Origin: an uncultured Verrucomicrobiae bacterium
GTDB lineage: Bacteria; Verrucomicrobiota; Verrucomicrobiia; Limisphaerales; UBA11358
Length of the DNA stretch: 64,000 bases
NCBI GenBank assembly: GCA_963842445.1
Contig: CAWJHF010000002.1
Location: 173,858-237,857 of the forward strand
Reading direction: 5' to 3'
The notes under the pieces are model-generated. The model was not told the origin of the DNA. It searched no databases and saw nothing but the letters and a program-made list of their open reading frames with translations. A program made the translations under genes and the position numbers. How positions within the stretch are numbered: position 1 is the stretch's first letter; every line of letters begins with the position of its first letter. Shown piece after piece: positions 10,255 through 36,643 of the stretch.

Positions 10255-10256
10255 CC

Positions 10257-11110: not shown

Positions 11111-11932
11111 ATGCCTAAAGATCATTTCGTTCCGCAGCACTATCTGCGGCAATTCGGTGTCGATGAGAAACGGATAGCTTTCGCAACACTGTCGCCGTAT
11201 CGGTTCATCGGGGCCGTTCCAATTGACCGGCAATGCCAAGAAAAGAATTTCTACGAAAAGGATAAGCCCTTGGACAAACTACTGTGGCAAAGCGAAAACG
11301 ACATTGCCCCGGTGCTATCACGGGTGATCCAAAGAAGGGATTTTGATCCAAAGGAGGCAGTTGCTCTCAAGCTGCTTGCTGCGATTTTTCATGTACGGAC
11401 CCGAAAGGCAGCGGAAATCGCCAAAGTCTTCCCGAAGTATGTGGCGCATGAAGTTATCAAACGAGCTATCAATCGTGGTGAACTGCCGCCGCCGCCCGAA
11501 GGTGAATTCACGGAGGAAATGATGGACTTTGGGGGAGTATCGGGTGTCCTGATACAGCAGGCGGTTTTATGTTGGATGGAAATGCAAACGCTCGAATGCA
11601 AACTGCTTCAGCCCGAACCGCCGACTTATTTTGTTACAAGCGATAATCCGGTCGTCATCTTGAATCAGTTTTGCGCCGATACAATGCCTCACCGCAGCTT
11701 CGCGGGATTCAGCATGTCAGGGTTTCAATTGTTACTGCCACTCAGTCCAAATCTTTGTTTGTGCCTTTATGATGCGAAAATCTACAAGGTCGGGAATCGA
11801 CGTGACCGGCTTGTGCCAATCTCGAAGCGTGATGTTGAGATTGTGAACGCACTCCAAATTCAATCGGCTGAGAAATGTCTCTATTTCCACGATCCGACGT
11901 TGGAGCCGGAAATCCGACGCCTTGTCGGTTGA
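11111..11932 (+). CDS. DUF4238 domain protein (possibly truncated by an in-frame TGA; the frame stays open to 12199)
   Basis: N-terminal HFVPQHYLRQF and internal TSDNPVV are signature-like for DUF4238. The same frame continues without stops from 11933 to the TAA at 12197-12199. Confidence 0.7.
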   Translation: MPKDHFVPQHYLRQFGVDEKRIAFATLSPYRFIGAVPIDRQCQEKNFYEKDKPLDKLLWQSENDIAPVLSRVIQRRDFDPKEAVALKLLAAIFHVRTRKAAEIAKVFPKYVAHEVIKRAINRGELPPPPEGEFTEEMMDFGGVSGVLIQQAVLCWMEMQTLECKLLQPEPPTYFVTSDNPVVILNQFCADTMPHRSFAGFSMSGFQLLLPLSPNLCLCLYDAKIYKVGNRRDRLVPISKRDVEIVNALQIQSAEKCLYFHDPTLEPEIRRLVG

Positions 11933-16237: not shown

Positions 16238-19200
16238 ATGAATTCTGGCCAACTCAAATTAGTTGATGACCGTCCGCTTTCCGAGCGTCTTCGCGCTTAC
16301 GGCTGTACGGATTTCGTTCGTCTTGACGATGGCCTCACGACTCCCGAACAACTCGACTATCTCGACTTGTTACCACGCCGGAGCACTTCGCCGGTCACAG
16401 CGGTTGTTGAGCACCAAGGAACAGCACTCCTCTACCTCGTGGATGCGTGTGGCAATATCACGACCGACGCTACTACGCTTGCGCAGTTGCAGCGGCAACT
16501 TGCGAACCGCAGCGACCCTGCTTGGCTTGGTGTACTGCGGCCCGGCTCACTGGAGATACATCCCATTGGCTTTCACGAAAGCAGCACGACTGTTCCAGTC
16601 GAGACCGTAGTCGAAAAAGATGATCGCGCTCCATTTTTCTTTCAAAGTCTAGCGCATGGCACTTTTGCACAGAACGAACGACTTAAAGGCTCGGATTATG
16701 TTTTCAAAAAAATCTATGGCCTGCTGACGCAGACGACGGACGCCTACGTTCCCGACAACAAACTCGAACCGCTTGAAGTTCTTTCCATGGCTGGCCGGGC
16801 GCTGTTCTTCCGATTCCTCATCGACCGCAGGATCGTTTTGCGAGATGAGCGAAAAGAAATCTGCCCGGCGTCGGACGGTTTGAAGGACGCTTTTGCCAAC
16901 GCTGAAAAAGCCGCCATGACTTCCGCGTGGCTCGACCAAACTTTCAATGGCGATTTCCTTCAACTGATTGACGAATCTATTTCTGCCGATGACCGTACCG
17001 CGCGGCAAGACGCATATTTGCAATTTTACAGACGAATCGAGCGGCGGGCGGGCAAAAAATTCTTTGACCACCTTCATGCCATTCTGAACGGCTGGCACGC
17101 GACGGGTGGCGGCATTCAGCAAGAATTAGACTGGGGTGATCTCGACTTTGCACACATACCAGTTGGCGTGTTGAGTCAGGTCTATGAAAGCTTCAGCCAT
17201 CGTGCCGATGCACGTACGGCGAAAAAAACGAGCGTTCATTACACTCCTAGAACCATCGCTCGGCTGATCGTAGATCAAACTTTCGCCGCCGCCAAAGACC
17301 CTGCTAACGCCCGTGTGCTGGATGCTGCGTGCGGAGCAGGCATCTTCCTTGTTCTTGCCTTCCGCCGTCTCGTGCGGGAGCGATGGCAGCACGACGAACA
17401 GCGCCCCGACACAAAAGCCATTCAGCAAATTCTTTACGGTCAGCTTCGGGGCTTTGACATCAGCGAATCTGCTCTCCGCCTTGCCGCGCTCGCGCTCTAC
17501 ATAACCGCGATTGAGGTAAACGGAACTCAGCGTCCACCAAAGGTGCTCAAGTTTCCGCGAAATCTGCGCAACGAAGTGCTTCACTACTTCGGCGATGTGC
17601 CCCCGGCGAAAGATACTGCTGCAAAGCAGCCTGCGAAGGCCACGTTTACGCTCGGCAGCCTCGGCCCGCGCGTGTCGTCGGAATTCAACAAGTCATTCGA
17701 CATCGTGCTTGGAAATCCGCCGTGGACGCGACTCCGCGAAGACGAACCGCAGAACACCGAACAAAGAGCTGCCGGGCGTGCAGCCAAGAAAGAACCGGCA
17801 AAAGTCGAGACTGACCTGCTGAACGAGGAATTCACGGCCATTGGTCAGCGTGTCCTTCGCGTGCGCGGTCTCGCTGAGTTGGCTGATAGCTACGAAAACC
17901 CCGACAAGAATCCTGACCTGCCTTTCCTCTGGAGGGCAACAGAGTGGGCTAAGGACGGTGGTCTTATTGCATTCGCACTTCCTGCACGCATCTTTGGTCG
18001 TACCACAGGCAAAGGCTACAAAGCATGGCGTGCTGTGCTCCATAGCATATCTCTGACCGGACTCATCAATGGCGCTGATCTGCGAAAGACCGCAGTGTGG
18101 GAGGGTATTGATATGCCGTTCTGCTTGTTGTTTGCTCGTAACGCACTCCCTCAAAACAAACACCGCTTTTATTATGCGACTCCACTCTACGAGCCTGAGC
18201 AAAACCGGGATGGCCGTTTCCGTATAGATTATGAAGCAACGCAGCCGGTGAGCATTGAGCGCGTGGAGAAACAGCCGTGGATATTAAAAACGCTGTCGCT
18301 CGGCACTTGGCGCGATGTTGAGGTGATGGAAAAGTTGACAAAGGCGTTTCAACGAACGCTTGCAGATGAGTGGAGGGTCTGGAATCCGAAGGCGGACAAG
18401 ACGCACCAAGGTTACAATCGTTCGCCTAATTTGAAACAAAAGTCAGCGATGTTTTTCAAAGAATTAAAAGACTTTGAACCGCCGCAAGAAGGCTTCAACA
18501 TTCAATACAGCGAATTAAAATCTTACTTCAAAAAATACAAAACGAACTCTGCTCACGGGCCTCGCACTGAAGCACTCTATGCAGCGCCGCTCGTCATTGT
18601 TCCAAAAGCTCCGGGTGATGTTGTGAACCGTCCCAAGGCATATCTATCGAGAAAACCGCTTACTTTTTCTCAGAGCTACTACGGTTATTCCTGTAATGGC
18701 CATCCCGATGCCAAAACTCTTGCCGCTTTGATTTATCTTATTCCGCAGAGTGATTTGTTTCGCTACTTCACCCTAATGGTTAGTGTGTCCCAGGGTGCGG
18801 ACCACATGATCTTCACCAAGCAAGATTTGGATACTCTCCCATTCCCAGACGTTGCCAAACTTCCAGCTCAAACAAAGAATGCCATCCGCAAGCTTGCTCG
18901 CCGTCTCGAAAGAGACGCAAAAAAACCGTGGGACGAAATTGACTCACTGCTCTTTCGCCTTTATGGCTTACAAGACAATGCGATTCAAGTCGTCCGAGAA
19001 ACCCTTTTTGCCGCCGCAGCCTATCGCCGCCAGGGCCGGGCCGCGCTGGACCGGACAACCCGCAAAGACCGCGCTCCATTCCGAAACACACTGCGTGAAC
19101 TACTAGAACCGTATTTCGACGTGTGTGGCCAGCATGTCGCCGTTGAAGAACCAAAGTCGCAGCCTGACGCTTGGGAGCAGCCGTGGTTCTTTGTCGCCAT

Positions 19201-19432
19201 CTCCCAAGCGGATGAAGAAGTGCCGTTGAATTCTGCGTTGCTCCGCAAGGCAATGGAGGAAGCTAACAAACGAGCCGCCAGTCGGATCATTGTCAAAGTT
19301 CACGGTCAACACGGGCTACTGTTGGGCCTGCTAAATCAACGCCGTTGGTGGACACAGACACGAGCCGAGTTGTGTGGCCAACACATCGTGCGACACCACC
19401 TTGGCGCTTTCGGTCTTGCCGAACAAACATGA
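16238..19432 (+). CDS. Large gamma-class N6-adenine DNA methyltransferase (type IIG/PglX-like architecture, 1064 aa)
   Basis: Motifs VHYTPRTIARLIV, motif I VLDAACGAGIFLV and motif IV DIVLGNPPWTRL. Long N- and C-terminal extensions. Confidence 0.85.
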   Translation: MNSGQLKLVDDRPLSERLRAYGCTDFVRLDDGLTTPEQLDYLDLLPRRSTSPVTAVVEHQGTALLYLVDACGNITTDATTLAQLQRQLANRSDPAWLGVLRPGSLEIHPIGFHESSTTVPVETVVEKDDRAPFFFQSLAHGTFAQNERLKGSDYVFKKIYGLLTQTTDAYVPDNKLEPLEVLSMAGRALFFRFLIDRRIVLRDERKEICPASDGLKDAFANAEKAAMTSAWLDQTFNGDFLQLIDESISADDRTARQDAYLQFYRRIERRAGKKFFDHLHAILNGWHATGGGIQQELDWGDLDFAHIPVGVLSQVYESFSHRADARTAKKTSVHYTPRTIARLIVDQTFAAAKDPANARVLDAACGAGIFLVLAFRRLVRERWQHDEQRPDTKAIQQILYGQLRGFDISESALRLAALALYITAIEVNGTQRPPKVLKFPRNLRNEVLHYFGDVPPAKDTAAKQPAKATFTLGSLGPRVSSEFNKSFDIVLGNPPWTRLREDEPQNTEQRAAGRAAKKEPAKVETDLLNEEFTAIGQRVLRVRGLAELADSYENPDKNPDLPFLWRATEWAKDGGLIAFALPARIFGRTTGKGYKAWRAVLHSISLTGLINGADLRKTAVWEGIDMPFCLLFARNALPQNKHRFYYATPLYEPEQNRDGRFRIDYEATQPVSIERVEKQPWILKTLSLGTWRDVEVMEKLTKAFQRTLADEWRVWNPKADKTHQGYNRSPNLKQKSAMFFKELKDFEPPQEGFNIQYSELKSYFKKYKTNSAHGPRTEALYAAPLVIVPKAPGDVVNRPKAYLSRKPLTFSQSYYGYSCNGHPDAKTLAALIYLIPQSDLFRYFTLMVSVSQGADHMIFTKQDLDTLPFPDVAKLPAQTKNAIRKLARRLERDAKKPWDEIDSLLFRLYGLQDNAIQVVRETLFAAAAYRRQGRAALDRTTRKDRAPFRNTLRELLEPYFDVCGQHVAVEEPKSQPDAWEQPWFFVAISQADEEVPLNSALLRKAMEEANKRAASRIIVKVHGQHGLLLGLLNQRRWWTQTRAELCGQHIVRHHLGAFGLAEQT

Positions 19433-20181
19433 GTCTGGCCGAAGGAAATGGTTTGTTCGCGCTCGGCATTCCACCGGAGCAGTTTAATTTGCCGCATCCA
19501 CGTCTTGATTTGCCAGTCATTTTGCTCGTCCGCCGTGTTCTGTTGTTTGCTTTTGACTTGTTACGCGAGCGCGGCTTTGCGCTTGTGACCGCCAAAGAAG
19601 ATGAGGTCACTGCGGCACTGCGGGCGATTATCGAAAACGACCTGAGACAAACAGGGAAGGTAGCAGGTTTTGGTCGCCTGACTTACGAAACCGTCGTTCG
19701 GCAAGGTCAGGTTATCAATTTTGACCTGACCAAACTGACGAAAACGCCAGACCTGTGCTTCAAACTCCGCAACGATGAAGAAGAACCACGACAGGTGCTT
19801 TCCGAACACGAAGCACTCTTTGTCGAATGCAAGCCGGTGGACGAAACCCACGCCGTAGGTGGCAGGTATTGTGATGACGGTTTGTGTCGTTTCGTCGAAG
19901 GCGACTACGCTTGGGCGATGCAGGAGGGACTCATGCTTGGGTACGCACGCCACGGTCGCACCATCGCGGAACATCTCATCCCTGTAATGGAAGAAGCGGT
20001 GCGGCGCATGAAATTAAAAACAGTCAAAGCCCCGCAGGAAATCAAGCACCCTGGAGCGGTCGCGTGCGAACACGCCGAAGCTCTGCATGTAAGCCGTCAT
20101 AACCGTGGGTTTGCATGGGTAGCAAACAAAGGTCCGGCCACTGATATTTTCATTTATCACTCGTGGCACGACTGCGGATGA
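19429..20181 (+). CDS. PD-(D/E)xK-type nuclease-fold protein, candidate restriction partner of the methyltransferase
   Basis: ATGA overlap with the upstream stop. TPDLCFKL...ALFVECKPV fits PD...ExK. Confidence 0.5.
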   Translation: MSLAEGNGLFALGIPPEQFNLPHPRLDLPVILLVRRVLLFAFDLLRERGFALVTAKEDEVTAALRAIIENDLRQTGKVAGFGRLTYETVVRQGQVINFDLTKLTKTPDLCFKLRNDEEEPRQVLSEHEALFVECKPVDETHAVGGRYCDDGLCRFVEGDYAWAMQEGLMLGYARHGRTIAEHLIPVMEEAVRRMKLKTVKAPQEIKHPGAVACEHAEALHVSRHNRGFAWVANKGPATDIFIYHSWHDCG

Positions 20182-20214: not shown

Positions 20215-21015
20215 CTACTCCCCGGTTCTCGTGTCGCCTTCGCCGGTATGGTCTTTACTGAAGGCACTGAAGGATGAGTAATTTTTGATGCGCTTGCCAC
20301 GGTTGATGCTCCCAAGTTGTGTCCGATCAATCCTGCGCTGTAGAAGATCGACCAGCTCATCGAAACGGGCGATGGGTATCCGTTCCCAGTCCGCCTTGAA
20401 TTCCTTTTTGATGATCCTGTAAATGGCGGCAAATGAAAAGTCGGTGCGTCCCGCCTGCTTGCTCGCAAAATCATTGTAACGGTCAATCAGATGCTTAACG
20501 TAATTGCGGCGGACCAAATCTGAACCGAGACTGCCCTCGACGGGGAGAAACTTCGGACTTCCCTTGGATTGGCGGATCGTCACGTTGTCAGCTTGAATTG
20601 ACCCCGGACTGTTCAGCATCACATGCCCTCCAGCCGTAATATAAACGGCCCGGTAGTCTCTCAGGATGGCTTCCACTTTTCGGGCGTCCGATTGCGAGAG
20701 GTCGATAGAGCCGTTTTTCTCATGAGCCTCCTTCATCTGACGTAGAAACTCGACCGTGTAGGTCTTCGGGTCGGAATCAATAAGCTTGCTGTGCCTGGCG
20801 CACATCAAAATCAGGTTCGCATGGCCATGTCGTTCTTCAGTGGGCTGCTTGGAGTCGTAACGGGGGCCTCCCTTACTCCGTGCCTTGATGTGGCAGACGA
20901 TGCCTGTGACAACGCCTGAATCTTCAACGATTGGAAGCTCACATTGAGGGAAGGCGCATCGGTTGTTCGATAGTACAAAGAGCCTTTTGAGCGTCGAAAG
21001 CAACGGTTCGTTCAT
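20215..21015 (-). CDS. HNH endonuclease-domain protein
   Basis: CAFPQCELP...VCHIKARSKGGPRYDSKQPTEERHGHANLILMCARHSKLID carries Cys pairs plus an H-N-H pattern. The ATG at 21015 avoids overlap with the hsdR stop at 21032. Confidence 0.7.
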   Translation of the reverse strand: MNEPLLSTLKRLFVLSNNRCAFPQCELPIVEDSGVVTGIVCHIKARSKGGPRYDSKQPTEERHGHANLILMCARHSKLIDSDPKTYTVEFLRQMKEAHEKNGSIDLSQSDARKVEAILRDYRAVYITAGGHVMLNSPGSIQADNVTIRQSKGSPKFLPVEGSLGSDLVRRNYVKHLIDRYNDFASKQAGRTDFSFAAIYRIIKKEFKADWERIPIARFDELVDLLQRRIDRTQLGSINRGKRIKNYSSFSAFSKDHTGEGDTRTGE

Positions 21016-21031
21016 ATCAACCTGAGTCGGC

Positions 21032-23989
21032 TCAATAATACTGCCGGATGTATTCGTAGGCCCGGTCAAAAAGCTCCTGCTCCCGGTGAAGCTGGTATTT
21101 CAGCAGCGTGCTCCGCAGCGCCCGCTTGATCTCGCGCTCGCCACCCGTGGTCTGCTGCCAACCGTCGAACCGCACGGCTCGGACAATGGCGTCAATGTCG
21201 CTGACAACGCGCTCGACCATCACCGGCGTCTTGGTGTTTTTGGCCGCTTTGAACAACTCCGTCAACGCGGCTTTGCCGCGATCCTGTTCCTGCGTTGGGA
21301 CGACTTCCTTTTCAGCGGCCACCACATCCTTGGCCAACTCCAGCAGCAGCTTCAGGAACGCCAGGCTGGTCAGGAGGCCCTTCTCGTGGCGCTCCTTCAA
21401 TTCCTCCAACCGCTGGCCCAGAGCGATGAATTTCGGATTCTTCGAGTGTTTTCGGATGCGGGCAATGATGTTGATCTCGATCAGCTTGATCTTGGTCGGG
21501 TCCTGAGACTCGATAATTTCCTTCAGCAGGTTTTCGTCCATCACCAGGGTTTCGAGGTTGTCTTGGACCGCTTCAACGTGGACGTTCTGATGGATCAATT
21601 CCACCGTTTTCGCGCCGAGCGTATGCCACAGCAGCTTGCCGTTACCACTGGGCGGTTTCACCGATTCGTACACCTGGCCGAGCCAGCGGTAATCGTCCTC
21701 ATAGGGTTTCAGGCACGAATCCGGCGACAATGCCTCCCACACCCTGGCAAAAACTGAAAAATCCGCAGCGAAAGCATCGCGCTTTTCATTATTCGGCAGG
21801 CATTGCTGCGCGGCGATCAGACCCTCGTAGCCGCTGACCTTCCGGTTCACGCCGGGGAAATAATCCACGCACTTTTTCCAGATCACCGATAATTGTGCTT
21901 TCACTTCCTCCAGGTTGGTGATGACCAGTCGGATGGATTTCTCGTCAAACATCAGCGCCCGGCCCACGTCGTCGAAAATGCCCAGGTAATCCACCACCAG
22001 GCCGTGCGTCTTGCCGGTGTACGGGCGATTCGTCCGGCAGATGGCCTGCAACAGCGTGTGATCCTTCATCGGCTTGTCCAGGTACATCGCCTGAAGAATT
22101 GGCGCGTCAAAGCCGGTCAGCAATTTCGATGTGACGATCAAGAATTTCAACGGGTGATTCGGGTCGCGGAAATTATCCAGGAGCCGCTCCTCGTCGTCCT
22201 TGCTGCGCTCGTAAAGCTTTTTATATTCCGTTTCGCCGCTGGCCACGGTCATCACGACGGCACTTGCTTCAGGCGGCAAAATCTTATCGAACTCCTGCTT
22301 AAACAAATGGCAGGACTCGCGGTCGAACGTCACCACCTGGGCTTTGAAACCGTTCGGCTCCACTTTCGTTTCGTAGTGCTCCACGATGTCCTTCACCAGC
22401 GTCTGAATGCGCTCCGGCGACTTAACCAGCACGCCCATTTTGGCGGCCATCTTTGACAGGTCCGCCGCGTCTTCTTCCGACATGTCGCTGGTAATGTTCT
22501 TAAACGCTTCATCAATCGCGTCCTTGTCTATGCGCAGTTGGACCAGCCTGGCCTCAAAATGCAGCGGCAGCGTGGCCTTGTCGCGGATGGATTCCTCGAA
22601 CGAATACTTGCTCATGTACCCATTGCCATCCTCGGCGGCACCAAACGCCCAAAACGTGTTCCGGTCGGCGCGGTTGATTGGCGTGCCGGTCAGGCCGAAC
22701 AGGAAAGCATTGGGCAGCGCCTCGCGCATTTTCCGGCCAAGGTCACCTTCCTGGGTCCGGTGCGCCTCGTCCACCATGACGATGATGTTCTTGCGGTCGT
22801 TCAGAACGCCGGGTGCTTCACCAAACTTGTGAATCGTGGTGATGATGATCTTCCGCACGTCCTGGGCCAGCAACTGACGCAGGTCATTGCGCGTGACGGC
22901 GGGAGCAACATTTGGGATGTCTGACGCGCTGAACGTGGCGGTGATCTGCGTATCCAGGTCGATTCGGTCCACCACAATGATGACGGTGGGATTTTGCAGA
23001 GCTGGATGCAGCCGCAACTTCTGCGCGGCAAAAACCATGAGCAGCGACTTTCCCGATCCCTGGAAATGCCAGATCAACCCTTTTTTCACGCGCCCCTCCA
23101 GCACGCGCTCGACGATCTGGTTCACCGCTTCGTATTGCTGGTAGCGACTGATAATTTTGATTTTCCGCCGTTTTTTGTCCGTGGCGAACAACGTGAAGCT
23201 GCCCAGGATGTCCAGCACCACTTCAGGCCGTAACATGCTCTCCACCGCCGTCCGCATCTCGCTCAAGCCGCCATGCTCGCCCTGCTCGGAATCCCGCCAG
23301 GGTGCCCATAGGTCCAGCGGCATACGGATCGAACCAAACCGGTACGTTTTGCCCTCTGTTGCGAAGGAAAAGACATTCGGAACAAACAACGCCGGGATGT
23401 TGACCTCGTAATCGTTCAGGATGTCGTCCGCCGCGTCCACCCAACTGATGGCCGGGCGCACCGGCGTCTTCGTCTCGCCCACGATCACGGGGATGCCGTT
23501 GACGAACAGCACCAGATCAGGCCGGAGTTTCTTGGCTGAGTAAACAAACTGCTGTGTACAGACGAACCGGTTGTTGCCCAAGGTCTCGAAATCAATCAGT
23601 CGGACGGGCGTGTGCTCGTTGTTTGGGCCGAACGGCATGGACCGCTCACCGCGCAGCCAGGCGGTGAATTCCTCATTGGCCCGGACCAGGCCGTCGCTCT
23701 GGACCGACAGCAGGATGGCCCGGAGTTTGTAAAAGACCTCATCGGCCCGGTCGGGCTTTTCGGCGATCTCTGGATTCAGCCGGATCAGCGCCTCACGTAG
23801 ATGCGGCTCAACCAGCACATCGTTGAAGTCACGGGGTAGTTGGTCGGCGGGGATGAAATGCCATCCCAGGCCCGCCGCCAGCGCCGGTAGCGATGCGCCT
23901 TTGAACAATGGCTCCCGCACCGCAGCGTCCTGTTTACCGCAGAGCAGATCACGGACATAATCCTCAACGCTGTTGGCTTCGTTAAACAT
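21032..23989 (-). CDS. hsdR: Type I restriction enzyme R subunit
   Basis: Motifs IWHFQGSGKSL, IIVMVDEAHRTQ, LLTGFDAP and QAICRTNR. 985 aa, with an 8-nt overlap with hsdS. Confidence 0.92.
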   Translation of the reverse strand: MFNEANSVEDYVRDLLCGKQDAAVREPLFKGASLPALAAGLGWHFIPADQLPRDFNDVLVEPHLREALIRLNPEIAEKPDRADEVFYKLRAILLSVQSDGLVRANEEFTAWLRGERSMPFGPNNEHTPVRLIDFETLGNNRFVCTQQFVYSAKKLRPDLVLFVNGIPVIVGETKTPVRPAISWVDAADDILNDYEVNIPALFVPNVFSFATEGKTYRFGSIRMPLDLWAPWRDSEQGEHGGLSEMRTAVESMLRPEVVLDILGSFTLFATDKKRRKIKIISRYQQYEAVNQIVERVLEGRVKKGLIWHFQGSGKSLLMVFAAQKLRLHPALQNPTVIIVVDRIDLDTQITATFSASDIPNVAPAVTRNDLRQLLAQDVRKIIITTIHKFGEAPGVLNDRKNIIVMVDEAHRTQEGDLGRKMREALPNAFLFGLTGTPINRADRNTFWAFGAAEDGNGYMSKYSFEESIRDKATLPLHFEARLVQLRIDKDAIDEAFKNITSDMSEEDAADLSKMAAKMGVLVKSPERIQTLVKDIVEHYETKVEPNGFKAQVVTFDRESCHLFKQEFDKILPPEASAVVMTVASGETEYKKLYERSKDDEERLLDNFRDPNHPLKFLIVTSKLLTGFDAPILQAMYLDKPMKDHTLLQAICRTNRPYTGKTHGLVVDYLGIFDDVGRALMFDEKSIRLVITNLEEVKAQLSVIWKKCVDYFPGVNRKVSGYEGLIAAQQCLPNNEKRDAFAADFSVFARVWEALSPDSCLKPYEDDYRWLGQVYESVKPPSGNGKLLWHTLGAKTVELIHQNVHVEAVQDNLETLVMDENLLKEIIESQDPTKIKLIEINIIARIRKHSKNPKFIALGQRLEELKERHEKGLLTSLAFLKLLLELAKDVVAAEKEVVPTQEQDRGKAALTELFKAAKNTKTPVMVERVVSDIDAIVRAVRFDGWQQTTGGEREIKRALRSTLLKYQLHREQELFDRAYEYIRQYY

Positions 23990-25190
23990 GCTCGATCAAC
24001 TCCTTTCGCAGACTGGTCGCCAGAGCCTCACAATTGCTCAGGTGATGCTGGAGCCTTCTCATGCGCTCCTGCACCGCTGCGAGCTTCTCGACAAAAGAAT
24101 CCTGCTGGCTTCGCGGAATCGGAGGAACTGGAAATTTTCGGAGGACAGTTGAGTTGATGGTGTGAAGTCCACTCGTGCTCTTGGCGCGACTACGGAAATA
24201 TGAACAGCCTTCGGAGCTGTTCATCAAGGCAACCAGGTATCTCGGATTGAGTTCGTCGCAGCACCTCGCTCGAAGAATATGGTTCTGATGTAGGCAGATT
24301 GGAATTTCGTCCGACCAGATGGCGGCTCGACCAATGGCATTTTTGTCGGCATGGCCTTCGACCACGAGCACGTCGTCCCTGAGAAGCTGGAACCTGGATA
24401 TTTCGTTGGCCTCACAGCCGATGGTCCTCATTTCCTCTAAATTCAAGAAACCGCGTCCGACGTTTGCCACACGAAGGTAAGGATAGACGGAAGAAATGGC
24501 GCGTCGTTTTCCGTCCACTGTGAGTCCATAGGCCACGGTGGAAAGTGTATCCAAGCTGACCATACGCAGATCAGCCGTAGCTTGAAAACGCTCATGGACT
24601 ACTGCTTCAACTACCTGCTCTGCGGCCTTCGCCGAATCTTCAACTGAAGTCCTTTGGTTTTCTGCGGCCCACAGAATCTCCGCAATCCGGCGCTGCTCAT
24701 CCTTCGGTGGGATCACGAACTCGTAGCGAGACAGGTCTTGCCATTTCGTGCGCGGTGACAACGATCCCGCCGACGTGTCCAGGGCGTGTTGCCAGAAACG
24801 CTCGGCCAGCATGATGAACGGAAGTAGTTCGGAAATCAGGTCATCATTTTTCGGCTCGAACACCAGGATGTCGCCGGAGCAGATGCCGTCAAACTCTGCC
24901 ACAGCCAGCTTGCGCTGATACGCCCGCCGTTTGCCAAACAACACCTGGCCCGAACGGAACCGTCGCGTGAACGTCGTGCCCTCCTCAATGTCAGCCCATC
25001 GTTTGATGTGCAACGATCCAGGGTCGAGATGATCCAGCCCCACGACCCGCTCGATACCCGCCGCTTGCGGATCAGTCACCGTGTCGTTGACACACTCCAC
25101 CACGTCACCAAACTTCACCCGCCGCCAGTCAGACTTGAGATTCTGGCTGCCGTTGGCCTGCGCGTTTGATTTGGTCGGCTTACTTGGCAT
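23982..25190 (-). CDS. hsdS: Type I restriction-modification specificity subunit
   Basis: Two-half architecture with conserved-region motifs PPKDEQRRIAEIL and PVPPIPRSQQDSFVEKL. Positioned directly upstream of hsdR. Confidence 0.8.
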   Translation of the reverse strand: MPSKPTKSNAQANGSQNLKSDWRRVKFGDVVECVNDTVTDPQAAGIERVVGLDHLDPGSLHIKRWADIEEGTTFTRRFRSGQVLFGKRRAYQRKLAVAEFDGICSGDILVFEPKNDDLISELLPFIMLAERFWQHALDTSAGSLSPRTKWQDLSRYEFVIPPKDEQRRIAEILWAAENQRTSVEDSAKAAEQVVEAVVHERFQATADLRMVSLDTLSTVAYGLTVDGKRRAISSVYPYLRVANVGRGFLNLEEMRTIGCEANEISRFQLLRDDVLVVEGHADKNAIGRAAIWSDEIPICLHQNHILRARCCDELNPRYLVALMNSSEGCSYFRSRAKSTSGLHTINSTVLRKFPVPPIPRSQQDSFVEKLAAVQERMRRLQHHLSNCEALATSLRKELIEHV

Positions 25191-25238
25191 CAGCAGGAAC
25201 TGTGGTTTTCTGTGTAGGTTTGAGCCGCACGCTCATGG

Positions 25239-26999
25239 TTACCGGAGTTTTTTATGCACCCATCGCCATTGCGTGTAGGCGCGTTCCATACACTTTTCAA
25301 AAGCGGTGTTCGTGCGAAGAAATCCGAAATTCCCTTCGGCCACACGGTCTTTATACTCTTTGTTGTCGGTTAGCCAACTCATTAGCATCCTACAGCGAGC
25401 CGTGGCCAGGTAACTAAGTTTGTTCACAAAATCCGCTTCGACGCTCAGGCTCGTGCCATATCGGTCTGCCAATTCTGCCAGTGCGGAGTCATTAAGCACG
25501 CCCTGGCAAAGCAGTGCCCATAAAAGCCCACGGGCGCGGCTGATGTAGCTGTAGCGATTGGGGCCTTTTTCTACGATGTCATTCATTAGTCGGCGGAGGC
25601 GGTAATGAATTTTGTAGCAGAGTACAATATGGCGAGTGTCAGCCTGGATTCGCGCTTCGTTGAATGCTAGGCCGTAGATGCGGTCGTCCTCAAATACCTG
25701 CGCCATACTCTGCGTTTTATCCACTTCGCCTTCCGTTAAGAGAAATGTCTGCGCCAGCGGTCGAATCTGAATGGGTTTGATTTCTGTGATGCCCTCCTCA
25801 TCCAAATTATCCAACGCCTCGAAAGCGTTCTCCTGGCGCTCATAGAATATGCCCAAGTCATCTTTGAACTTTTCCTGTAATTGAAGCTGGATCAGGTCAT
25901 TGGCCCGAAGATTCCATGGCTCTACGGGATTTTGACGGTTATTATTGATTGTAACGCTGGTGAAGAAGTCAGACGTGGCCTTAGTGATGATTTTGCACAG
26001 GACGCGCACTTCGTCCAAAGCCTGCTTCCGTTCCTCGACAAGTGGGTTCTCGGCGTTCGCCTTGATGAACTCGTCGAAAGTAGTCACCGTCTGAGCACCG
26101 TTAAGCAGTCTTGGCGATGTGATGTGATAGTTACTGTCGATTTTCTCAAGGTGTTCGGCTGCGAGCGTGATACCATTGTGGTTGAAGGCAAAGACCAACG
26201 GAGATTCGCCATCGACCGCAATCTGCTTGAGCGCCCGCGAGAGCGCCCGGTTGACCGACCGGTTCATTCCAAGTCCAAAACGAATGTTGCGCTCGAAAAA
26301 CCGAGGTCCCATGTCTCGGTGCATGAAATTCAAGTCGGTCAATCGAATGAAGCCGACATACATCTGTTCACCTGCCGGACCTGGGCGCTCAATTAACTCA
26401 GTCAAGGGAAGTTGATAAACACGGGCGCGGGTGTGGTCTTCCACCGTGCCGATTTTGCCCGTGACGGAACGAAACTCGACCAAAAAACTGACCTGCCTGC
26501 CCTCAAAGAACTTGTCGATGAGAAACTTTTTGTTTTCAAGGTCTTCCCGGAGATGGTCGAGCACCGGGCTTTTGTCTGCTTCAGCGGGGTCACCGGTAAA
26601 GATGAACCGCAAACACACCTGCTTGATGGCCTCACGGTTCTCCAACATGCAACTGCGAAGTTGAAGCAGAATCTGATTTTTCGCCGGGTCAGCCTTTTGT
26701 GGCTTCGAGAAAATCACTTCCATGCCCTCATCGATCAATCGTTGCATCGAGCCTTTGAATTGAGCGTGAGATTTGGAGTATTTGAACTGGAACAGGTAAA
26801 GATTCCTTTTTTCGGGATCGAAGTGAAAGCCGTCCAGTCCGTAGTCGTTTCCGCCAAATGCGACTTGATTGAGGACCTGCTCTCGCGGCACTTTGTAATC
26901 TCGCTCCAACACCAAAAGCCCGAAGTAGTCATTGCGTACGCCTCCGCATGTATCTTTCAAATCGGAATATGCTTGGTCAATCATTCGGTCTGTTATCAT
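25239..26999 (-). CDS. AIPR-family (abortive infection phage resistance) protein
   Basis: N-terminal nuclease-like DYGLDGFHFD...LYLFQFKYS, and central FNHNGITLAA / LLNGAQTVTTF typical of AIPR. Embedded between hsdM and hsdS. Confidence 0.7.
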   Translation of the reverse strand: MITDRMIDQAYSDLKDTCGGVRNDYFGLLVLERDYKVPREQVLNQVAFGGNDYGLDGFHFDPEKRNLYLFQFKYSKSHAQFKGSMQRLIDEGMEVIFSKPQKADPAKNQILLQLRSCMLENREAIKQVCLRFIFTGDPAEADKSPVLDHLREDLENKKFLIDKFFEGRQVSFLVEFRSVTGKIGTVEDHTRARVYQLPLTELIERPGPAGEQMYVGFIRLTDLNFMHRDMGPRFFERNIRFGLGMNRSVNRALSRALKQIAVDGESPLVFAFNHNGITLAAEHLEKIDSNYHITSPRLLNGAQTVTTFDEFIKANAENPLVEERKQALDEVRVLCKIITKATSDFFTSVTINNNRQNPVEPWNLRANDLIQLQLQEKFKDDLGIFYERQENAFEALDNLDEEGITEIKPIQIRPLAQTFLLTEGEVDKTQSMAQVFEDDRIYGLAFNEARIQADTRHIVLCYKIHYRLRRLMNDIVEKGPNRYSYISRARGLLWALLCQGVLNDSALAELADRYGTSLSVEADFVNKLSYLATARCRMLMSWLTDNKEYKDRVAEGNFGFLRTNTAFEKCMERAYTQWRWVHKKLR

Positions 27000-27027
27000 T
27001 TTCGTTTTCCTTTCCGGTTTTCAGAAG

Positions 27028-28530
27028 TTACCCACGCATGTCAGTATGATTTAAAATCACAAGGAGGTTGTCCATTGACGACCGCAGAGCCGCTGAACTT
27101 GTTTGCCATACCTCGATGACCTTTGCCAGCGGTTTTTCGGTCGCGGTGGTTGTTGCGCCGTTGGCGTTGAGCCGGATGTAAAGCGGGATGCTCAAGTTGG
27201 CCTTGTTGGCGCGGATTTCATCCAGTGGCACGGCGCGGGCAAAACCATCCACGTCGGCGAACGATTGATAGGTCGTCAGGATTTTTTGGATGTGATTTTC
27301 TTCCAGAAAACTCTGCGCTCGTTCACGGGTGACTTCGTTTACGGCATTGATGAATAAAATCTTGTTTTTCCGCGCCTTGGGTTTTGCCGTCCGGCACACC
27401 ACCACGCACGCCTCCATCGGCGAGTTGTAAAACAAGTTGGGACCCAGGCCCAGGACACATTCAATCTGGTCTCTGTCCACGAGCTTGGCCCGCATCTCTT
27501 GTTCCTCGTCCCGGAACAGCACGCCGTGTGGGAACAGGATCGCGCACCGGCCCGTCTTCGGCTTTAGGCTGGCCAGGATGTGGCCGAGGAAGGCGTAGTC
27601 CGCTCGACCCTGCGGCGGCGTGCCCAGGGAATTGCGCCCGAAACGGTCGGATGACCAGGCGGTGCGGTCCCACTGCTTGATGGAGTACGGAGGATTGGCC
27701 AGCGCCAGGTCAAATTGCCGGAGCCGGTCGCCATCCGTGAAAGCCGGAGCCGCCAGCGTATCGCCGCGCACGATTTTGAAATCCTCGATGCCATGCAGGA
27801 ACATGTTCATCCGGGCGATGGAACTGGTCATCAGGTTGCGCTCCTGGCCGTATGCTTTGAGATTGCGCCATTCTTTGCCGCGTGTCCTGACTTCGGCGAT
27901 GGCTGACAGCAACATGCCGCCAGTGCCGCAGGTCGGATCGTAGATGGAGTCCCCCGGCTGCGGATCAAGCATCAACGTCATCAGGTGGACCAAAGTGCGG
28001 TTCGTATAAAACTCGGCGGCGGTGTGGCCGCTGTCGTCGGCGAATTTTTTAATCAGAAATTCATACGCATTGCCCAGTTCGTCTTCCGGCACGTTGGCAA
28101 TAGAGAGGTTCAGCGTGGAATAGTGCTCGATCAGGTCTTTGAGCATTTTATCCGGCAGCCGCTCGGTGTTGGTCCACTGCGCGTCACCGAAAATGCCGAA
28201 TAGCGTTTCCGGGTTGGCCTTCTCGATGTCCCGCATCGCGTCCTGGATGCCCTTGCCGATGTTTTTGGGCCGGTTCCGCACATCCCGCCAGTGAGCGCCT
28301 GGCGGCACCTGAAAGCGGTGGTTTTCCGCAAACGTGGCGAAGTCAGCGTCGCCGCTGGATTGTTTCAACGCCTTTTCATATTCCTCATCGTAAACGTCAC
28401 AGAGCCGCTTGAAGAACAGGAGCGGGAAGATGAACTGTTTGTAGTCGCCAGCGTCAATGAAACCACGGAGAAGCGTGGCCGCGCCCCACAGGTAGGATTC
28501 GAGTTGCTGTTGGGTGATGTGGGTGTTCAT
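27028..28530 (-). CDS. hsdM: Type I R-M N6-adenine DNA methyltransferase subunit (copy 1)
   Basis: N-terminal HsdM_N-like LWGAATLLRG...FIFPLLFFKRL, motif I DPTCGTGGML and motif IV LANPPYS. Note FYTNR where FYTPR is usual. Confidence 0.92.
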   Translation of the reverse strand: MNTHITQQQLESYLWGAATLLRGFIDAGDYKQFIFPLLFFKRLCDVYDEEYEKALKQSSGDADFATFAENHRFQVPPGAHWRDVRNRPKNIGKGIQDAMRDIEKANPETLFGIFGDAQWTNTERLPDKMLKDLIEHYSTLNLSIANVPEDELGNAYEFLIKKFADDSGHTAAEFYTNRTLVHLMTLMLDPQPGDSIYDPTCGTGGMLLSAIAEVRTRGKEWRNLKAYGQERNLMTSSIARMNMFLHGIEDFKIVRGDTLAAPAFTDGDRLRQFDLALANPPYSIKQWDRTAWSSDRFGRNSLGTPPQGRADYAFLGHILASLKPKTGRCAILFPHGVLFRDEEQEMRAKLVDRDQIECVLGLGPNLFYNSPMEACVVVCRTAKPKARKNKILFINAVNEVTRERAQSFLEENHIQKILTTYQSFADVDGFARAVPLDEIRANKANLSIPLYIRLNANGATTTATEKPLAKVIEVWQTSSAALRSSMDNLLVILNHTDMRG

Positions 28531-28531
28531 A

Positions 28532-30232
28532 CTACGCTTCCTTGAGCGACGGCGAAATGGCCTTTTCGAGTTTTATAGCTGACGCGACCACCCACTCCGA
28601 CAACGTCTTTAGATCGGCTGCCGACTGCTGAATAGACCCTGCACGATAGATGGCGATCCGGCAGGCCCTTTTGTCGTCCATGCGCTCCCAGCGCAATACT
28701 TCGTCAGATTTTAGCAGGCCAAGTTTGCCGTCAATGTCGGTCTGGTTTCTAAACAACTTGTCGTAAACAGCCTTATTCCACTTCCTCTTGCCGTAATCAA
28801 CATAAAGTTCGACCCGCAACTCCTTGGACTTTGTGAAGCTGGCAAACAAGCCAATCTTCTTTTTGGAAGCGTTCGGGAGGTCTGCCAGCCGGAAATAACT
28901 CCGCCCGTCCGGTTCGCCTACCCTCAAAGGAAATTCTTTGTGTTTCGCAAGTCTCTGCCGAACGCCGTTGAAAAAGTTGATGTATGACTTTTCTCGGCCA
29001 CCAATCCGCACGAAGACGATCTCCTTCCCACCTTGAAAGGCGTTCGGCACAAAATAGAGCACCCTCCAACCGATCTCCAACCATTGCGCCGAACGTAGAT
29101 TTTCAGGTTCATTGGCCCACCAGGACCTGTGTTCGTGTGCGGCCTTTGGCAGCTTGCACTTCGTTATATTCTTCTCAATGTCCTGGAGTCGGATGCGGAC
29201 TTCCTTTTGGCCTGGGGGTAGGGCCTGCAAATAGCTGATCAGTGGAACAAGTATGCTGTCGGTCGGTCGAGCTTCCTCGTCGGTTGGCTCAGTTACTTGC
29301 GATGCAGAACCGCGGGCAGCGGAAGTGACAATCTGACCTAGCTCTTTCGGAGGTTCTGGATGGGCATCGGCAGCACAGACAATTTCAAGCCAGTCCTTGC
29401 AGAACCGTAACTGCTCCCGTTCAGTGGGTGATAATTCACCTCGAAAATGCGCCAGCTTGTTCCGCGTTTCACGCACATCGCTGAGCAGTCGTCGAATCAC
29501 CTCCTTATCATCCGATTGAGCGATTTTCGGGCACATGGGATGCAGCAGCAGCATTTCAGCGAATTCCGCCATCGTAAGCTCATCGAAAGCTTTTTTGCGG
29601 TCAGGCACACCAAGGCGCTTGAATGCCACGTCAACGGTCGGGGCGTCTAATGCACAGGGTTCCGTACGCGATTTGCCCAGATAGGACATTAAGGCCGACT
29701 CAAACTTAGGCCGCATTTGTCGGGCAGGATTGGAGACAGCTTCGATGGTTTCCCCCATGCCACCTTTTTCACCCGGCTTCACAAAATAGGCAGCCTCTAC
29801 GTATTCCTTTAGCATGGTTTCGATGTCTTCGACCAACATCATGTCTCCTGCCCGCCGTCTGAAAAAGTCTGTCGTGTCATAGGTTGTTACGATACCAACT
29901 ACCTTGCTTTCACGGTCGGTAATTACAACGGCGTAAGTATTTTTGGTTTCGTCCAGCAGTTCCTCGATGTCCTGGTCGAGGAACATCTTGGTTGCGCCCT
30001 CCCTGGCGTCACGGACGCCCAACTGTGCGGGCGCAACCTTGAAGCTGTTCGATGCACGCACGATTGAACTTGCGGTAACCATGCCCGACACCACCCCCTC
30101 AGTGGTAACGACTGGCAACTGACTAAAGTCGTGTTTGGCCATCAAGGATAGAGCGTGCGCAACTGTGTCGCTCGACGAAACGCAGACTGGTTGCGCTCGG
30201 CCTTCGATCAAATCTCGCACAGTGAATAGCAT
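28532..30232 (-). CDS. CBS-pair / HEPN (Swt1-like) / DUF4268-like fusion protein
   Basis: Two CBS-like units in the first ~130 aa. Central SDVRETRNKLAHFRG carries an RNxxxH HEPN motif. The C-terminal ~170 aa (LRVELYVDYG...LRWERMDDKRACRIAIYR) resembles DUF4268. ATG at 30232 lies 4 nt after the hsdM-2 stop; an alternative GTG is at 30253. Confidence 0.6.
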   Translation of the reverse strand: MLFTVRDLIEGRAQPVCVSSSDTVAHALSLMAKHDFSQLPVVTTEGVVSGMVTASSIVRASNSFKVAPAQLGVRDAREGATKMFLDQDIEELLDETKNTYAVVITDRESKVVGIVTTYDTTDFFRRRAGDMMLVEDIETMLKEYVEAAYFVKPGEKGGMGETIEAVSNPARQMRPKFESALMSYLGKSRTEPCALDAPTVDVAFKRLGVPDRKKAFDELTMAEFAEMLLLHPMCPKIAQSDDKEVIRRLLSDVRETRNKLAHFRGELSPTEREQLRFCKDWLEIVCAADAHPEPPKELGQIVTSAARGSASQVTEPTDEEARPTDSILVPLISYLQALPPGQKEVRIRLQDIEKNITKCKLPKAAHEHRSWWANEPENLRSAQWLEIGWRVLYFVPNAFQGGKEIVFVRIGGREKSYINFFNGVRQRLAKHKEFPLRVGEPDGRSYFRLADLPNASKKKIGLFASFTKSKELRVELYVDYGKRKWNKAVYDKLFRNQTDIDGKLGLLKSDEVLRWERMDDKRACRIAIYRAGSIQQSAADLKTLSEWVVASAIKLEKAISPSLKEA

Positions 30233-30236
30233 AAAT

Positions 30237-31745
30237 TCAGACCAAATTGGCACTTTTCAGCAGAGACTTGAGCCGGTCCTCGGCAGCGTAGGCGTCGGCC
30301 AGCGCCGTCTTCAAGTTGGCGAGTGCCTGCTTGACCGTGATAGTTTCCTGGTCACTGACCTGCTCAACGTACCGGGGAATGTTCAGGTTATAGTCGTTGG
30401 CGGCGATCTCCTTCAACGTAACGACCTTGGCGATGCCTTTGACGTTTTTGTAATCCCGATACCAGCCGAAGATTTTGTCCACATGTTCCGGCAGGAGCGT
30501 GTTCTGATTCCGACCCTTTTTGAAAATGCCCGATGCGTTGATGATGAGCACACGATTCCGCCGATCCGGCTTTTTTCTGGCCCGGAAGACCAGGATACAA
30601 GCTGCCAGGCCAGTGCCGTAGAACAGGTTTGGCCCCAGTCCGATCACTGCTTCAAGTTTATCCATCTCCAGTATTGTGCGCCGTATCTTTCCCTCGACCC
30701 CCATGCGGAACAGCACGCCATGCGGCAGAACGACCGCCATGCGTCCGGTGCCGGGGGCCATTGACTTCAACATGTGCTGGACGAAGGCGTAATCAGCGCT
30801 GCTCCGTGGCGGGACACCGGCAAAATTGCGGCCATATCGGTCATTGACCCAGATGTCCTCACCCCACCGCTCCACGGAGAACGGCTCGTTGGCGATCACA
30901 CAAACGAACGTGGCCAGGCTGTCACCAGTGAAAAAGGCCGGATCACGGAGCGTGTCGCCCCGGACAATCTTGAAATCTTCGACACCATGCAAAAACAGAT
31001 TGATCCTGGCTATGGCCGACGTGGTGAGGTTCTTTTCCTGACCGAACAGCTTGCCCCATAACTTCCTGACATTGCCGCCAGCCTCTTTTACGTGCTGGAT
31101 TGCGCCCAGGAGCATACCGGCTGTGCCGCAAGTCGGGTCGTAAATCGTGTCGCCCTCCTTCGGGTCGAGGATTTTGACCATCAGCCGGACAACACTGCGG
31201 GGTGTATAAAACTCTCCGGCCTTCCGGTTGGTCTGGTCGGCGAATTTCTTGATCAGGTATTCATACGCCTGGCCCAGAATGTCATCATCGGTGTCACGGT
31301 TGGCCAGACCGATGCGCGAGAAATGCTCAATCAGATCGCGCAGCAGCGCATCGGACAGCCGTTCCTTGTTGCTCCAGGGTGCATCGCCGAAAATTCCGTA
31401 AAGGGTGTTCGGATTGGCCTTTTCGATTTCCCGCATGGCCCTCTGGATGGCCTGGCCGACGTTTGTGGTCTTGGCCCGAACATCATTCCAATGGCAGCCC
31501 TCCGGTATTTGAAACCGATGGTTTTCGGCGAACTGAGCGTAGGCGATGTCGCCGCCCGATTCCTGGAGCGCCTGGTCGTATTCTTCGTCGTAAACGTCAC
31601 TGATCCGCTTGAAAAACAACAGTGGAAAAATGAACGTTTTGAAGTCCGAGGCATCAACCGGCCCGCGCAGGATGTTGGCGGCTTCCCACAGATGGGATTC
31701 CAAGGTTGTCAGATCAACAGTGCTGGTGGACGCCGGAGTTGTCAT
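30237..31745 (-). CDS. hsdM: Type I R-M methyltransferase-subunit paralogue (copy 2) with non-canonical motifs I and IV
   Basis: Collinear with copy 1 and more than 50% identical by eye. FYTPR is present, but motif I reads DPTCGTAGML and motif IV reads IANEPFS, where the N/D-PP-Y/F pattern is expected. Both checked on the DNA. Confidence 0.85.
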   Translation of the reverse strand: MTTPASTSTVDLTTLESHLWEAANILRGPVDASDFKTFIFPLLFFKRISDVYDEEYDQALQESGGDIAYAQFAENHRFQIPEGCHWNDVRAKTTNVGQAIQRAMREIEKANPNTLYGIFGDAPWSNKERLSDALLRDLIEHFSRIGLANRDTDDDILGQAYEYLIKKFADQTNRKAGEFYTPRSVVRLMVKILDPKEGDTIYDPTCGTAGMLLGAIQHVKEAGGNVRKLWGKLFGQEKNLTTSAIARINLFLHGVEDFKIVRGDTLRDPAFFTGDSLATFVCVIANEPFSVERWGEDIWVNDRYGRNFAGVPPRSSADYAFVQHMLKSMAPGTGRMAVVLPHGVLFRMGVEGKIRRTILEMDKLEAVIGLGPNLFYGTGLAACILVFRARKKPDRRNRVLIINASGIFKKGRNQNTLLPEHVDKIFGWYRDYKNVKGIAKVVTLKEIAANDYNLNIPRYVEQVSDQETITVKQALANLKTALADAYAAEDRLKSLLKSANLV

Positions 31746-32286
31746 CGATCATCGGGGAGTGAATCACGAAGGCAGGGAAAACGAAAGATGTGTTTTCTGC
31801 GAAAACGCGGGGTTGCCGTGCGTTGAACGAATCCGTCAGACCTGCCGATCCTGATCCACAAAGCCACCCCTAAATTAGGCGTGGAAATAGTTTTGAACCG
31901 AGCTTACCGAATTTGAGGCAACCCCCGTTGCTTAATCATCGTCTTGCCAACTTGTGTGTGAATCCACGGAAATGTCTTTTAGAGAGCCGGGTTCCGCTAG
32001 TTTCTCTGGAGCGGGCGATGGGCCGAAGGGGCCGATTGGGTGTGCGAAGTATCGCTTTGGCGGCGGGTCAGACGGAGAGCGTTTTGAACACTTTGACCGC
32101 ACATGGGCAGGCAGTTTTTTGTCCCACATCGGCAAAAAAGCAATACGGGCACCGAACCATTTGTTTGCCTCGTTTCCGCTTACGCATCTAACGATATGGA
32201 TCACCGACACCGCGCCACTGACGCACAGAATGCAATCAGAGCACTTTCGCGGCGTTCGGTACACCCGCTTGTTGGGCCTTTTTTAT

Positions 32287-36384: not shown

Positions 36385-36485
36385 GCGGTCTTTTAGAACA
36401 TCGCCCCGTGGGTGTAAAGCCTTCGCCGCGCCGCTACCGGACGCCACCACGCCCCGCTCGGTGATCCCGGACAGGCAAGGGAGAG

Positions 36486-36554
36486 CGAACCGCCTGCGGC
36501 GTGGATTTGAACCTGAACTGGGACCGGCTGATGGCGGATGTGGGTTCCCACTGC
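36486..36554. repeat. Right copy of the 68-nt imperfect inverted repeat (partner at 339..406)
   Basis: See 339..406. Lies in the 260-nt divergent intergenic region between the helicase (start 36384) and the DUF5069 gene (start 36644). Confidence 0.9.
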
Positions 36555-36643
36555 CAACCGGCGGGCTGATTCCAAATTGTAACAGGGTTGACCTTGCCAA
36601 TCAGCGAAGCGATGGGCATGGTGTCATCAAAGAAAGAAACTTT

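Follow-up and report, generated by a model that had tools for sequence, protein, structure and literature searches.

A predicted PacII-type restriction–modification locus carrying three putative defense genes in an uncultured Verrucomicrobiae bacterium

Organization of the Locus

The stretch of DNA considered here (hereafter, the window) comprises 64,000 nucleotides (nt) of contig CAWJHF010000002.1 (positions 173,858 to 237,857 of assembly GCA_963842445.1) from an uncultured Verrucomicrobiae bacterium. Between positions 20215 and 31745, its minus strand carries a type I restriction–modification (R-M) locus in which two hsdM methylase genes, a specificity gene (hsdS) and a restriction gene (hsdR) are accompanied by three extra genes of defense type, referred to below as cargo. 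Open reading frame (ORF) listing and translation confirmed seven co-directional ORFs, all full length and intact, in the order M1-type hsdM, CBS-HEPN, M2-type hsdM, AIPR, hsdS, hsdR, and HNH. Successive genes are separated by a 4-nt gap, a 1-nt gap, 28 nt and 48 nt, then by an 8-nt overlap and finally by 16 nt, lengths which assume ATG 30232 as the start of the CBS-HEPN gene and ATG 21015 as that of the HNH gene. The former start is backed by a conserved N-terminus in the family alignment, which favors a protein of 566 amino acids (aa); the gene call of the public collection gives 536 aa (P0001), and the mechanical ORF reaches further, to GTG 30253 (28532–30253). A preliminary description of this DNA had listed the same seven minus-strand genes in the same order. 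Every ORF was recovered at the position it had given, its six junction lengths proved exact, and its domain labels agree with profile matches (Pfam, PADLOC, and NCBIfam) or, for HEPN, with the family alignment, an AlphaFold2 (AF2) model and HEPN_Swt1 matches in relatives.

The seven genes are packed closely enough for one transcription unit. Upstream of the M1-type gene lies a non-coding leader of 541 nt (31746–32286, minus strand), no minus-strand ORF of 60 aa or more being present between 31745 and 32287, and this leader is likely to contain the promoter region. It holds one weak sigma-70-like match (31962–31935, 9/12) which is not above chance. Promoter and terminator scans were uninformative, with 7 promoter-like sites against 6.9 expected from shuffled sequence and 21 terminator-like sites against 18.1. 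The preliminary description had taken terminators or promoters between the genes as a sign against a single operon; the same scan, which has little power, placed no terminator-like site in any of the intergenic gaps, its counts not exceeding those of shuffled sequence. As the gaps measure 1 to 48 nt, or the genes overlap, and no such site separates them, the cargo probably rides the transcript of the R-M operon. No tRNA gene was found in the window, and the sequence offers no hint on how the cargo got inserted.

A PacII-type Methylase Pair

In PacII-type systems, a non-canonical form of type I R-M, the methylase is a heterotrimer of M1, M2, and S (Morgan et al., 2016, PMC5100572; Zhu et al., 2022, PMC9613975; PDB 7vru/7vs4). 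In this family, M1, which carries the signatures "AGEF" and "NPPF," makes N6-methyladenine (m6A), while M2, with "AAEF" and "NPPY," makes N4-methylcytosine (m4C), the genes following the order M1, M2, S, R (PMC5100572; PMC9613975). Both hsdM genes of the window encode HsdM_N and N6_Mtase domains (Pfam), and the two proteins are 54% identical to each other, within the published range of 45–55% for such paralogs. The upstream gene (30237–31745, minus strand, 502 aa) has PacII M1 as its best PDB match, with 582 bits against 7vru_A vs. 480 against 7vru_B (PacII M2), and retains AGEF. Conversely, the downstream gene (27028–28530, minus strand, 500 aa) scores 620 bits against 7vru_B vs. 477 against 7vru_A; its TAAEFYT, LANPPYS, and LLRG segments align with the PacII M2 motifs, including the conserved arginine (PacII R29). 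Together with HsdS, the two methylases are reciprocal best matches of PacII M1, M2, and S.

The remaining core genes are equally recognizable. The hsdS gene (23982–25190, minus strand) encodes a 402-aa specificity subunit with two target-recognition domains (TRDs), identified by Pfam Methylase_S and PADLOC Specificity_I (2.2e-119); its best PDB match is the S subunit of PacII (7vru_C, 4e-42), the N-terminal TRD aligning best. The hsdR gene (21032–23989, minus strand) encodes a 985-aa restriction/translocase subunit (TIGR00348, 530 bits; HSDR_N/SWI2_SNF2/T1R_D3 in Pfam) whose motifs are intact, namely D158...E172-x-K174, GSGKS311, DEAH407, and QxxxRxxR648.

The same layout recurs widely. When metagenomes were scanned with the clade of the upstream hsdM, an M2-type paralog came next in 60 of the 64 loci where the M1-type gene had 600 nt or more of downstream sequence. 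The M1–M2 gap was 60 nt or less in 39 of them, and hsdS and hsdR come after the pair. Motif IV reads NPPF in 78/80 orthologs of the upstream clade and NPPY in all 54 orthologs scored in the downstream clade. An NPPF-type gene upstream of an NPPY-type gene, followed by S and then R, with AGEF and AAEF signatures, is the arrangement that the window shares with the PacII type, and judged from its genes the locus belongs to this known type I R-M family, with a predicted m6A/m4C chemistry. It differs from the published systems in the NEPF motif IV of M1, in having both intergenic slots filled and in a gene placed after R.

This assignment changes how the two methylase genes are read. The notion that they are duplicates split by an insertion does not hold, as they represent the defining M1/M2 pair of a known family (PMC5100572; PMC9613975). 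The labels of the preliminary description also run opposite to published naming, its "hsdM-2" being M1 and its "hsdM-1" being M2. A dedicated three-gene module made of the two hsdM genes and the CBS-HEPN gene was considered as well and ruled out, since the hsdM pair is adjacent without an insert in most loci and matches the published M1 and M2.

The NEPF Variant of M1

In the window M1, residues 286–289 of motif IV read NEPF in place of NPPF, AGEF being kept, and an aspartate is replaced by valine five residues upstream. NEPF is shared with a 92%-identical ortholog in a related locus (L080, 3249–4757); between the two genes, the synonymous divergence (dS) is ~1.05 and the ratio of nonsynonymous to synonymous divergence (dN/dS) 0.04. 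Such a low ratio against an ortholog with the same motif indicates strong purifying selection, by which the NEPF protein is maintained. The sole other deviant among ~87 M1 orthologs has NLPF and occurs in a locus which also contains a CBS-HEPN gene (L103, 6001–7461), while six further CBS-HEPN-bearing loci retain NPPF. Published mutants in which NPPF was changed to APPA lost m6A (PMC5100572); the asparagine and phenylalanine of motif IV are kept in the window M1. HsdR looks intact, and loss of M1 activity should be harmful; the NEPF protein is hence probably active or otherwise tolerated.

The idea that the upstream hsdM is an inactivated paralog, suggested by a GTAG motif I, the aspartate-to-valine change and NEPF, was rejected as a general property because six orthologs in syntenic loci are canonical. 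GTAG also occurs in one of 80 orthologs, and motif I of EcoKI is GTAG as well. Of the deviations in the M1 motifs, NEPF alone remains notable.

Two related loci show irregular methylase genes. In L041, the M1-type hsdM (9286–9975) lacks residues ~112–372, a decay of a single component. In L080, the closest relative, the frame of the M2-type hsdM (6467–6856) diverges after ~95 residues close to the contig end, which may be a frameshift or an assembly artefact.

Cargo Slots in Related Loci

Morgan et al. (2016, PMC5100572) reported extra ORFs in 10 characterized PacII-type systems, of which six have them between M1 and M2, two in the M2–S interval, and one in the S–R interval. The first two positions are those occupied in the window. 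In our survey, the M1–M2 gap exceeded 400 nt in 15/66 metagenome loci with both genes (~23%), and the M2–S gap exceeded 400 nt in 18/44 (~41%); both slots were occupied in eight loci, the latter two counts including loci selected for their CBS-HEPN gene. Most loci of the family carry no cargo. Where the M1–M2 slot is filled, it contains a PLD nuclease, GmrSD, DUF4062-HATPase_c_4, PDDEXK_3, AIPR, CBS-HEPN, or one of several unknowns. The M2–S slot, which holds AIPR in the window, contains Schlafen/AlbA_2, GmrSD, DUF6236, or unknowns in other loci. A gene also follows hsdR in L018, where it encodes a TIR-Roc-COR protein. The cargo set of the window was not found in any other of the ~160 loci examined.

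The arrangement had been described as unusual, which it is not for a PacII-type family in which extra ORFs were published in 2016 and either slot is often filled in the survey. Both slot positions are thus already known, and the combination seen here is a further example rather than a new kind of system. Judged by these comparisons, the window appears as one realization of a modular design.

The CBS-HEPN-DUF7662-DUF4268 Protein

The gene between M1 and M2 (28532–30232, minus strand) encodes a 566-aa protein in which a CBS pair is followed by a HEPN domain of the Swt1/Abi2-like type with an RNxxxH motif, DUF7662 and DUF4268, as assigned from Pfam, NCBIfam, PADLOC, and the AF2 model. Pfam calls CBS, DUF7662 (residues ~337–391), and DUF4268; DUF7662 is a fourth domain which was absent from the preliminary description. 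The HEPN domain has no Pfam call in the window protein alone (HEPN_Swt1, E=0.19). HEPN_Swt1 matches 5 of 22 diverse family members at E ≤0.01 (best 1.8e-4), and E138 and R257-N258-x3-H262 (RNKLAH) are invariant across these 22 sequences. In the AF2 model (full-length pLDDT 81), residues 117–290 are all-alpha. The protein thus combines an Rx4-6H motif, an all-alpha model and a profile match in relatives, as expected of the Swt1/Abi2 clade of the HEPN superfamily. CBS-HEPN fusions of this clade were predicted in 2013 to be nucleotide-responsive RNases (PMC3710099).

The closest characterized relative is DS-11, which joins CBS and HEPN in one protein, protects Escherichia coli from phage and loses defense when either the CBS adenine contact or the HEPN catalytic residues are mutated (DefensePredictor, Science 2026, PMC13092281). 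The NCBIfam model DS11_antiphage (NF053863) matches residues 4–149 of the window protein with E=4.5e-27 and 94.9 bits, below its equivalog cut-off of 260 bits. Both proteins have an N-terminal CBS pair, then a HEPN domain with an intact RNxxxH in one polypeptide, and the predicted logic, CBS adenine-nucleotide sensing gating a HEPN RNase, would be the same. Unlike DS-11, which stands alone, the window gene is embedded in an R-M operon, and its product is about twice as long, with C-terminal DUF7662 and DUF4268; the alignment covers the CBS pair and the first HEPN helix. The window protein appears from this comparison to be a distant DS-11 relative.

The C-terminal half was modeled with confidence (residues 325–566, pLDDT 90, pTM 0.83). 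A Foldseek search with the full-length model returned CBS-pair matches exclusively, and the C-terminal model had no significant PDB match, with weak YbjN/SycE-like similarity (probability ~0.8, E >0.04). In the model, the secondary-structure elements of DUF7662 are ordered as in a winged helix, and those of DUF4268 form the series alpha-beta3-alpha-beta2-alpha found in YbjN/SycE-like proteins. No sign of a second nuclease was seen, the DUF4268 model showing no nuclease-like fold against PDB. DUF4268, which PADLOC candidate PDC-S11 also matches here, occurs as an accessory domain in GmrSD type IV enzymes as well as in MdgA/MdgB, and a role as substrate-recognition module has been suggested for it there (PMC4619093; bioRxiv 10.1101/2025.02.28.640651). 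As in these proteins, it forms the C-terminal module of a defense protein; it is fused to DUF262/DUF1524 nucleases there and to CBS-HEPN in the window.

A further parallel is provided by PrrC, a HEPN anticodon nuclease encoded within the type Ic R-M operon EcoprrI, the common idea being a suicide effector which forms a second line after restriction. PrrC differs from the window protein in its ABC-ATPase N-domain, the window protein having a CBS pair and no ATPase domain, and in belonging to a single-hsdM rather than a two-methylase system. The combination of an ABC-ATPase N-domain with a C-terminal HEPN which defines PrrC-type anticodon nucleases is therefore not found here.

Grouping at 90% identity divides the CBS-HEPN family into at least 144 clusters, and the four-domain architecture is constant. 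The preliminary description had raised the question of how often such genes sit between hsdM genes, and they recur in the M1–M2 slot in at least nine other loci (L005, L014, L018, L021, L026, L041, L061, L080, and L103). A genome scan with the family and tblastn revealed the order hsdM, CBS-HEPN, hsdM, then hsdS and hsdR in L005, L014, L018, L021, L026, and L061 and a remnant of it in L041. These seven loci belong to metagenome-assembled genomes (MAGs) of Chloroflexota and Pseudomonadales, and in each of them the distance between the M1-type gene and the slot gene is at most 54 nt. In L080, the 4-nt and 1-nt junctions around the CBS-HEPN gene are identical to those of the window. The slot-embedded members occupy at least five separate places of a neighbor-joining tree (without support values), and this polyphyly implies that such genes entered this slot, or were exchanged there, repeatedly.

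Outside the slot, the family has other neighbors. Of its 65 genomic members, nine adjoin an M1/M2-type or other HsdM gene, six an HsdR gene, and seven type IIG/ISP methylase-nucleases; about one-third lie within 3 kb of R-M genes, in three architectures (type I M1/M2, classical HsdR, and type IIG/ISP). The other members have no recognizable R-M neighbor, and about two-thirds of the family lack any R-M gene within 10 kb. No neighbor is universal, and a search for a conserved partner gene was negative. The preliminary description had made its reading depend on a preferential association of the inserted genes with type I loci; the CBS-HEPN family adjoins type I genes in only about a quarter of genomes.

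Several related loci deserve mention. In L061, the CBS-HEPN gene (10001–11578) lacks residues ~150–318, again a decay of a single component. L082 (306–2995) holds a CBS-HEPN-DUF4268 gene with 46% identity and, 35 nt further downstream, a gene for a 326-aa HNH_2 protein unrelated to the HNH protein of the window; here the family is paired with an HNH nuclease for a second time, independently of the window. In five cyanobacterial loci (L015, L027, L028, L040, and L058), a pair encoding an EVE-domain and a DprA-like (DNA_processg_A) protein is conserved downstream of the CBS-HEPN gene, and a type IIG methylase with a PLD-SNF2 helicase is often found upstream. This cyanobacterial set may be another composite defense locus.

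The AIPR and HNH Genes

The second cargo gene (25239–26999, minus strand) encodes a 586-aa AIPR/AbiU1-like abortive-infection protein, recognized by Pfam AIPR (PF10592, 74.8 bits for a cut-off of 25) and PADLOC AbiU (2.3e-27). Orthologs with 58–59% identity occupy the other slot, between M1 and M2, in L097 and L110. The linkage of AIPR/AbiU1 to R-M loci is established (Makarova et al., 2012, PMC3506569), as the preliminary description had stated, and the window AIPR is ordinary for its family, showing no meaningful difference from the published cases.

The third cargo gene (20215–21015, minus strand) encodes a 266-aa protein which has a Cap5-type HNH nuclease domain at its N-terminus and whose C-terminal half is uncharacterized. 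It matches PADLOC PDC-M68A (1e-27) and models of CBASS/SAVED HNH effectors, as well as PDB 9om4_A (6e-15) and Cap5 (7rwm_A, 3.5e-10); the motifs CH41-42, N56, and C72-x2-H75 are present, and Pfam HNH_2 is sub-threshold. Its family consists of 243 clusters of ~260 aa with 52–85% identity. In five other contexts, the neighbors of its relatives are resolvase/ParB/RepB, D5-primase, integrase, and toxin-antitoxin genes, a mobile-element-like environment, and none of these five contexts has type I genes beside the HNH homolog. The association with type I loci on which the preliminary description had made its reading depend is therefore not seen for the HNH family in these five contexts. A tblastn search of ~160 related R-M loci likewise found no HNH homolog. 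Being absent from these loci and lacking type I neighbors in the five contexts, the gene appears to hold an idiosyncratic position after hsdR in the window.

Interpretation

We consider it likely that the locus is an m6A/m4C PacII-type type I R-M system which carries three autonomous, co-transcribed defense genes. Its gene plan is M1, a slot, M2, a second slot, S and R. If the locus works as published for the family, M1, M2, and S would assemble into a heterotrimeric methylase, M1 placing m6A on one strand of the host DNA and M2 placing m4C on the opposite strand, and HsdR would join M1M2S in order to cut unmarked incoming DNA. Three self-contained defense genes would have been recruited where the family commonly holds extra ORFs. 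The CBS-HEPN gene between M1 and M2 is predicted to encode a DS-11-like HEPN RNase gated by nucleotides, which could serve as a back-up abortive-infection toxin; a putative AIPR/AbiU1-like abortive-infection protein is placed between M2 and S, and a predicted Cap5-type HNH nuclease after R. Such cargo is nevertheless modular and swapped from locus to locus independently of the R-M core. What the analysis shows directly is the identity of the genes, their orthology to PacII, a conserved M1-M2-S-R layout and a variable cargo, while we infer that the genes are co-transcribed, that their products have these enzymatic activities and that the cargo functions autonomously.

Four points weigh against this explanation. 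The shared transcript is a prediction accompanied by a promoter and terminator scan of little power. NEPF stands in place of the family NPPF, so that the m6A activity of M1 is not assured. The DS-11 model covers just the CBS pair and the first HEPN helix, and the window protein is not a DS-11 equivalog. Lastly, the tight junctions kept in L080 and the repeated capture in one slot could mean functional coupling instead of hitch-hiking.

This last point leads to the most interesting testable idea raised by the locus, a possible PrrC-like guard role for the CBS-HEPN protein. The protein would be coupled physically and functionally to M1M2S, kept stoichiometric by translational coupling, held inactive and freed as an RNase when an Ocr- or ArdA-like anti-restriction protein disables the complex. 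The precedent of PrrC in EcoprrI (PMC3710099) and the binding of PacII M1M2S by Ocr and ArdA (PMC9613975) speak for such a role. The same slot is used within 54 nt of an M1-type gene in seven loci, and in L080 and L103 too; the CBS-HEPN tree spreads the slot loci over at least five separate clades, and about a third of genomic members lie within 3 kb of R-M genes in three architectures. Nevertheless, about two-thirds of the family have no R-M gene within 10 kb and there is no conserved partner; DS-11 defends alone in E. coli (PMC13092281), and the slot hosts many unrelated genes, so that position alone implies no interaction. The motif IV of M1 is equivocal in this respect: its deviations from NPPF (NEPF twice, NLPF once) are confined to CBS-HEPN-bearing loci, but NPPF is kept in six others. 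On this evidence, we regard a guard role as unlikely. A more specific form, in which the protein is a dedicated M1M2S guard docking by its DUF7662/DUF4268 half, its RNase firing on anti-restriction, with NEPF and NLPF as co-adaptations to the partnership, seems to us quite improbable.

Two other readings fare worse against the comparative data. The preliminary description had suggested a layered restriction and abortive-infection locus, of which the type I R-M system with three extra, tightly packed defense-type genes stands. What does not stand is a single integrated seven-gene machine, since unrelated cargo genes replace one another from locus to locus, a pattern in favor of modular hitch-hiking. 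That the HEPN, AIPR, and HNH effectors are dedicated, co-evolved parts of one operon is in keeping with seven co-directional genes separated by at most 48 nt without a terminator-like site; the uniqueness of the cargo set among the ~160 loci, the absence from them of HNH homologs, which sit elsewhere in other genomes, the different slot taken by AIPR in L097 and L110 and the cargo-free state of most family loci make it very unlikely. Equally, M1 might be catalytically dead and the R-M system heading to loss, with the cargo alone functional, given that glutamate replaces the central proline of motif IV, that an aspartate is changed to valine five residues upstream and that single genes decay in L041 and L061. 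This is hardly credible for a gene with a dN/dS of 0.04 relative to a 92%-identical NEPF ortholog (dS ~1), in a locus in which every ORF is full length, the HsdR motifs are intact, and the N and F of motif IV, both altered in the NPPF-to-APPA mutants that abolished m6A, are retained.

Taken as a PacII-type system with modular cargo, the locus would be a clean natural example of an R-M operon acting as a carrier of interchangeable second-line defense genes, and it leaves current concepts unchanged. It places an uncharacterized four-domain DS-11 relative in a recurrent genomic slot, and this slot gene is a concrete candidate for asking whether cargo senses the state of the R-M complex. A natural NEPF M1 under selection could also inform active-site variation in heteromeric m6A/m4C methylases.

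Genomic Surroundings

Other genes of defense type flank the locus. A second R-M-like pair on the plus strand (16238–20181) converges on the HNH gene. It consists of a 1064-aa type IIG/BREX-PglX-like methylase (16238–19432) and, joined to it by an ATGA overlap (start 19429, stop 19432), an ORF of ~250 aa (19429–20181) resembling PD-(D/E)xK nucleases, with the motif PD...ECK. Further away, a HEPN_AbiU2 gene (9777–10913) and a DUF4238 gene (11111–11932) are found, and on the other side a 935-aa helicase (33793–36600) matches PADLOC candidate PDC-S28 (E 1e-116). The region from ~10 to 37 kb thus looks like a defense island.

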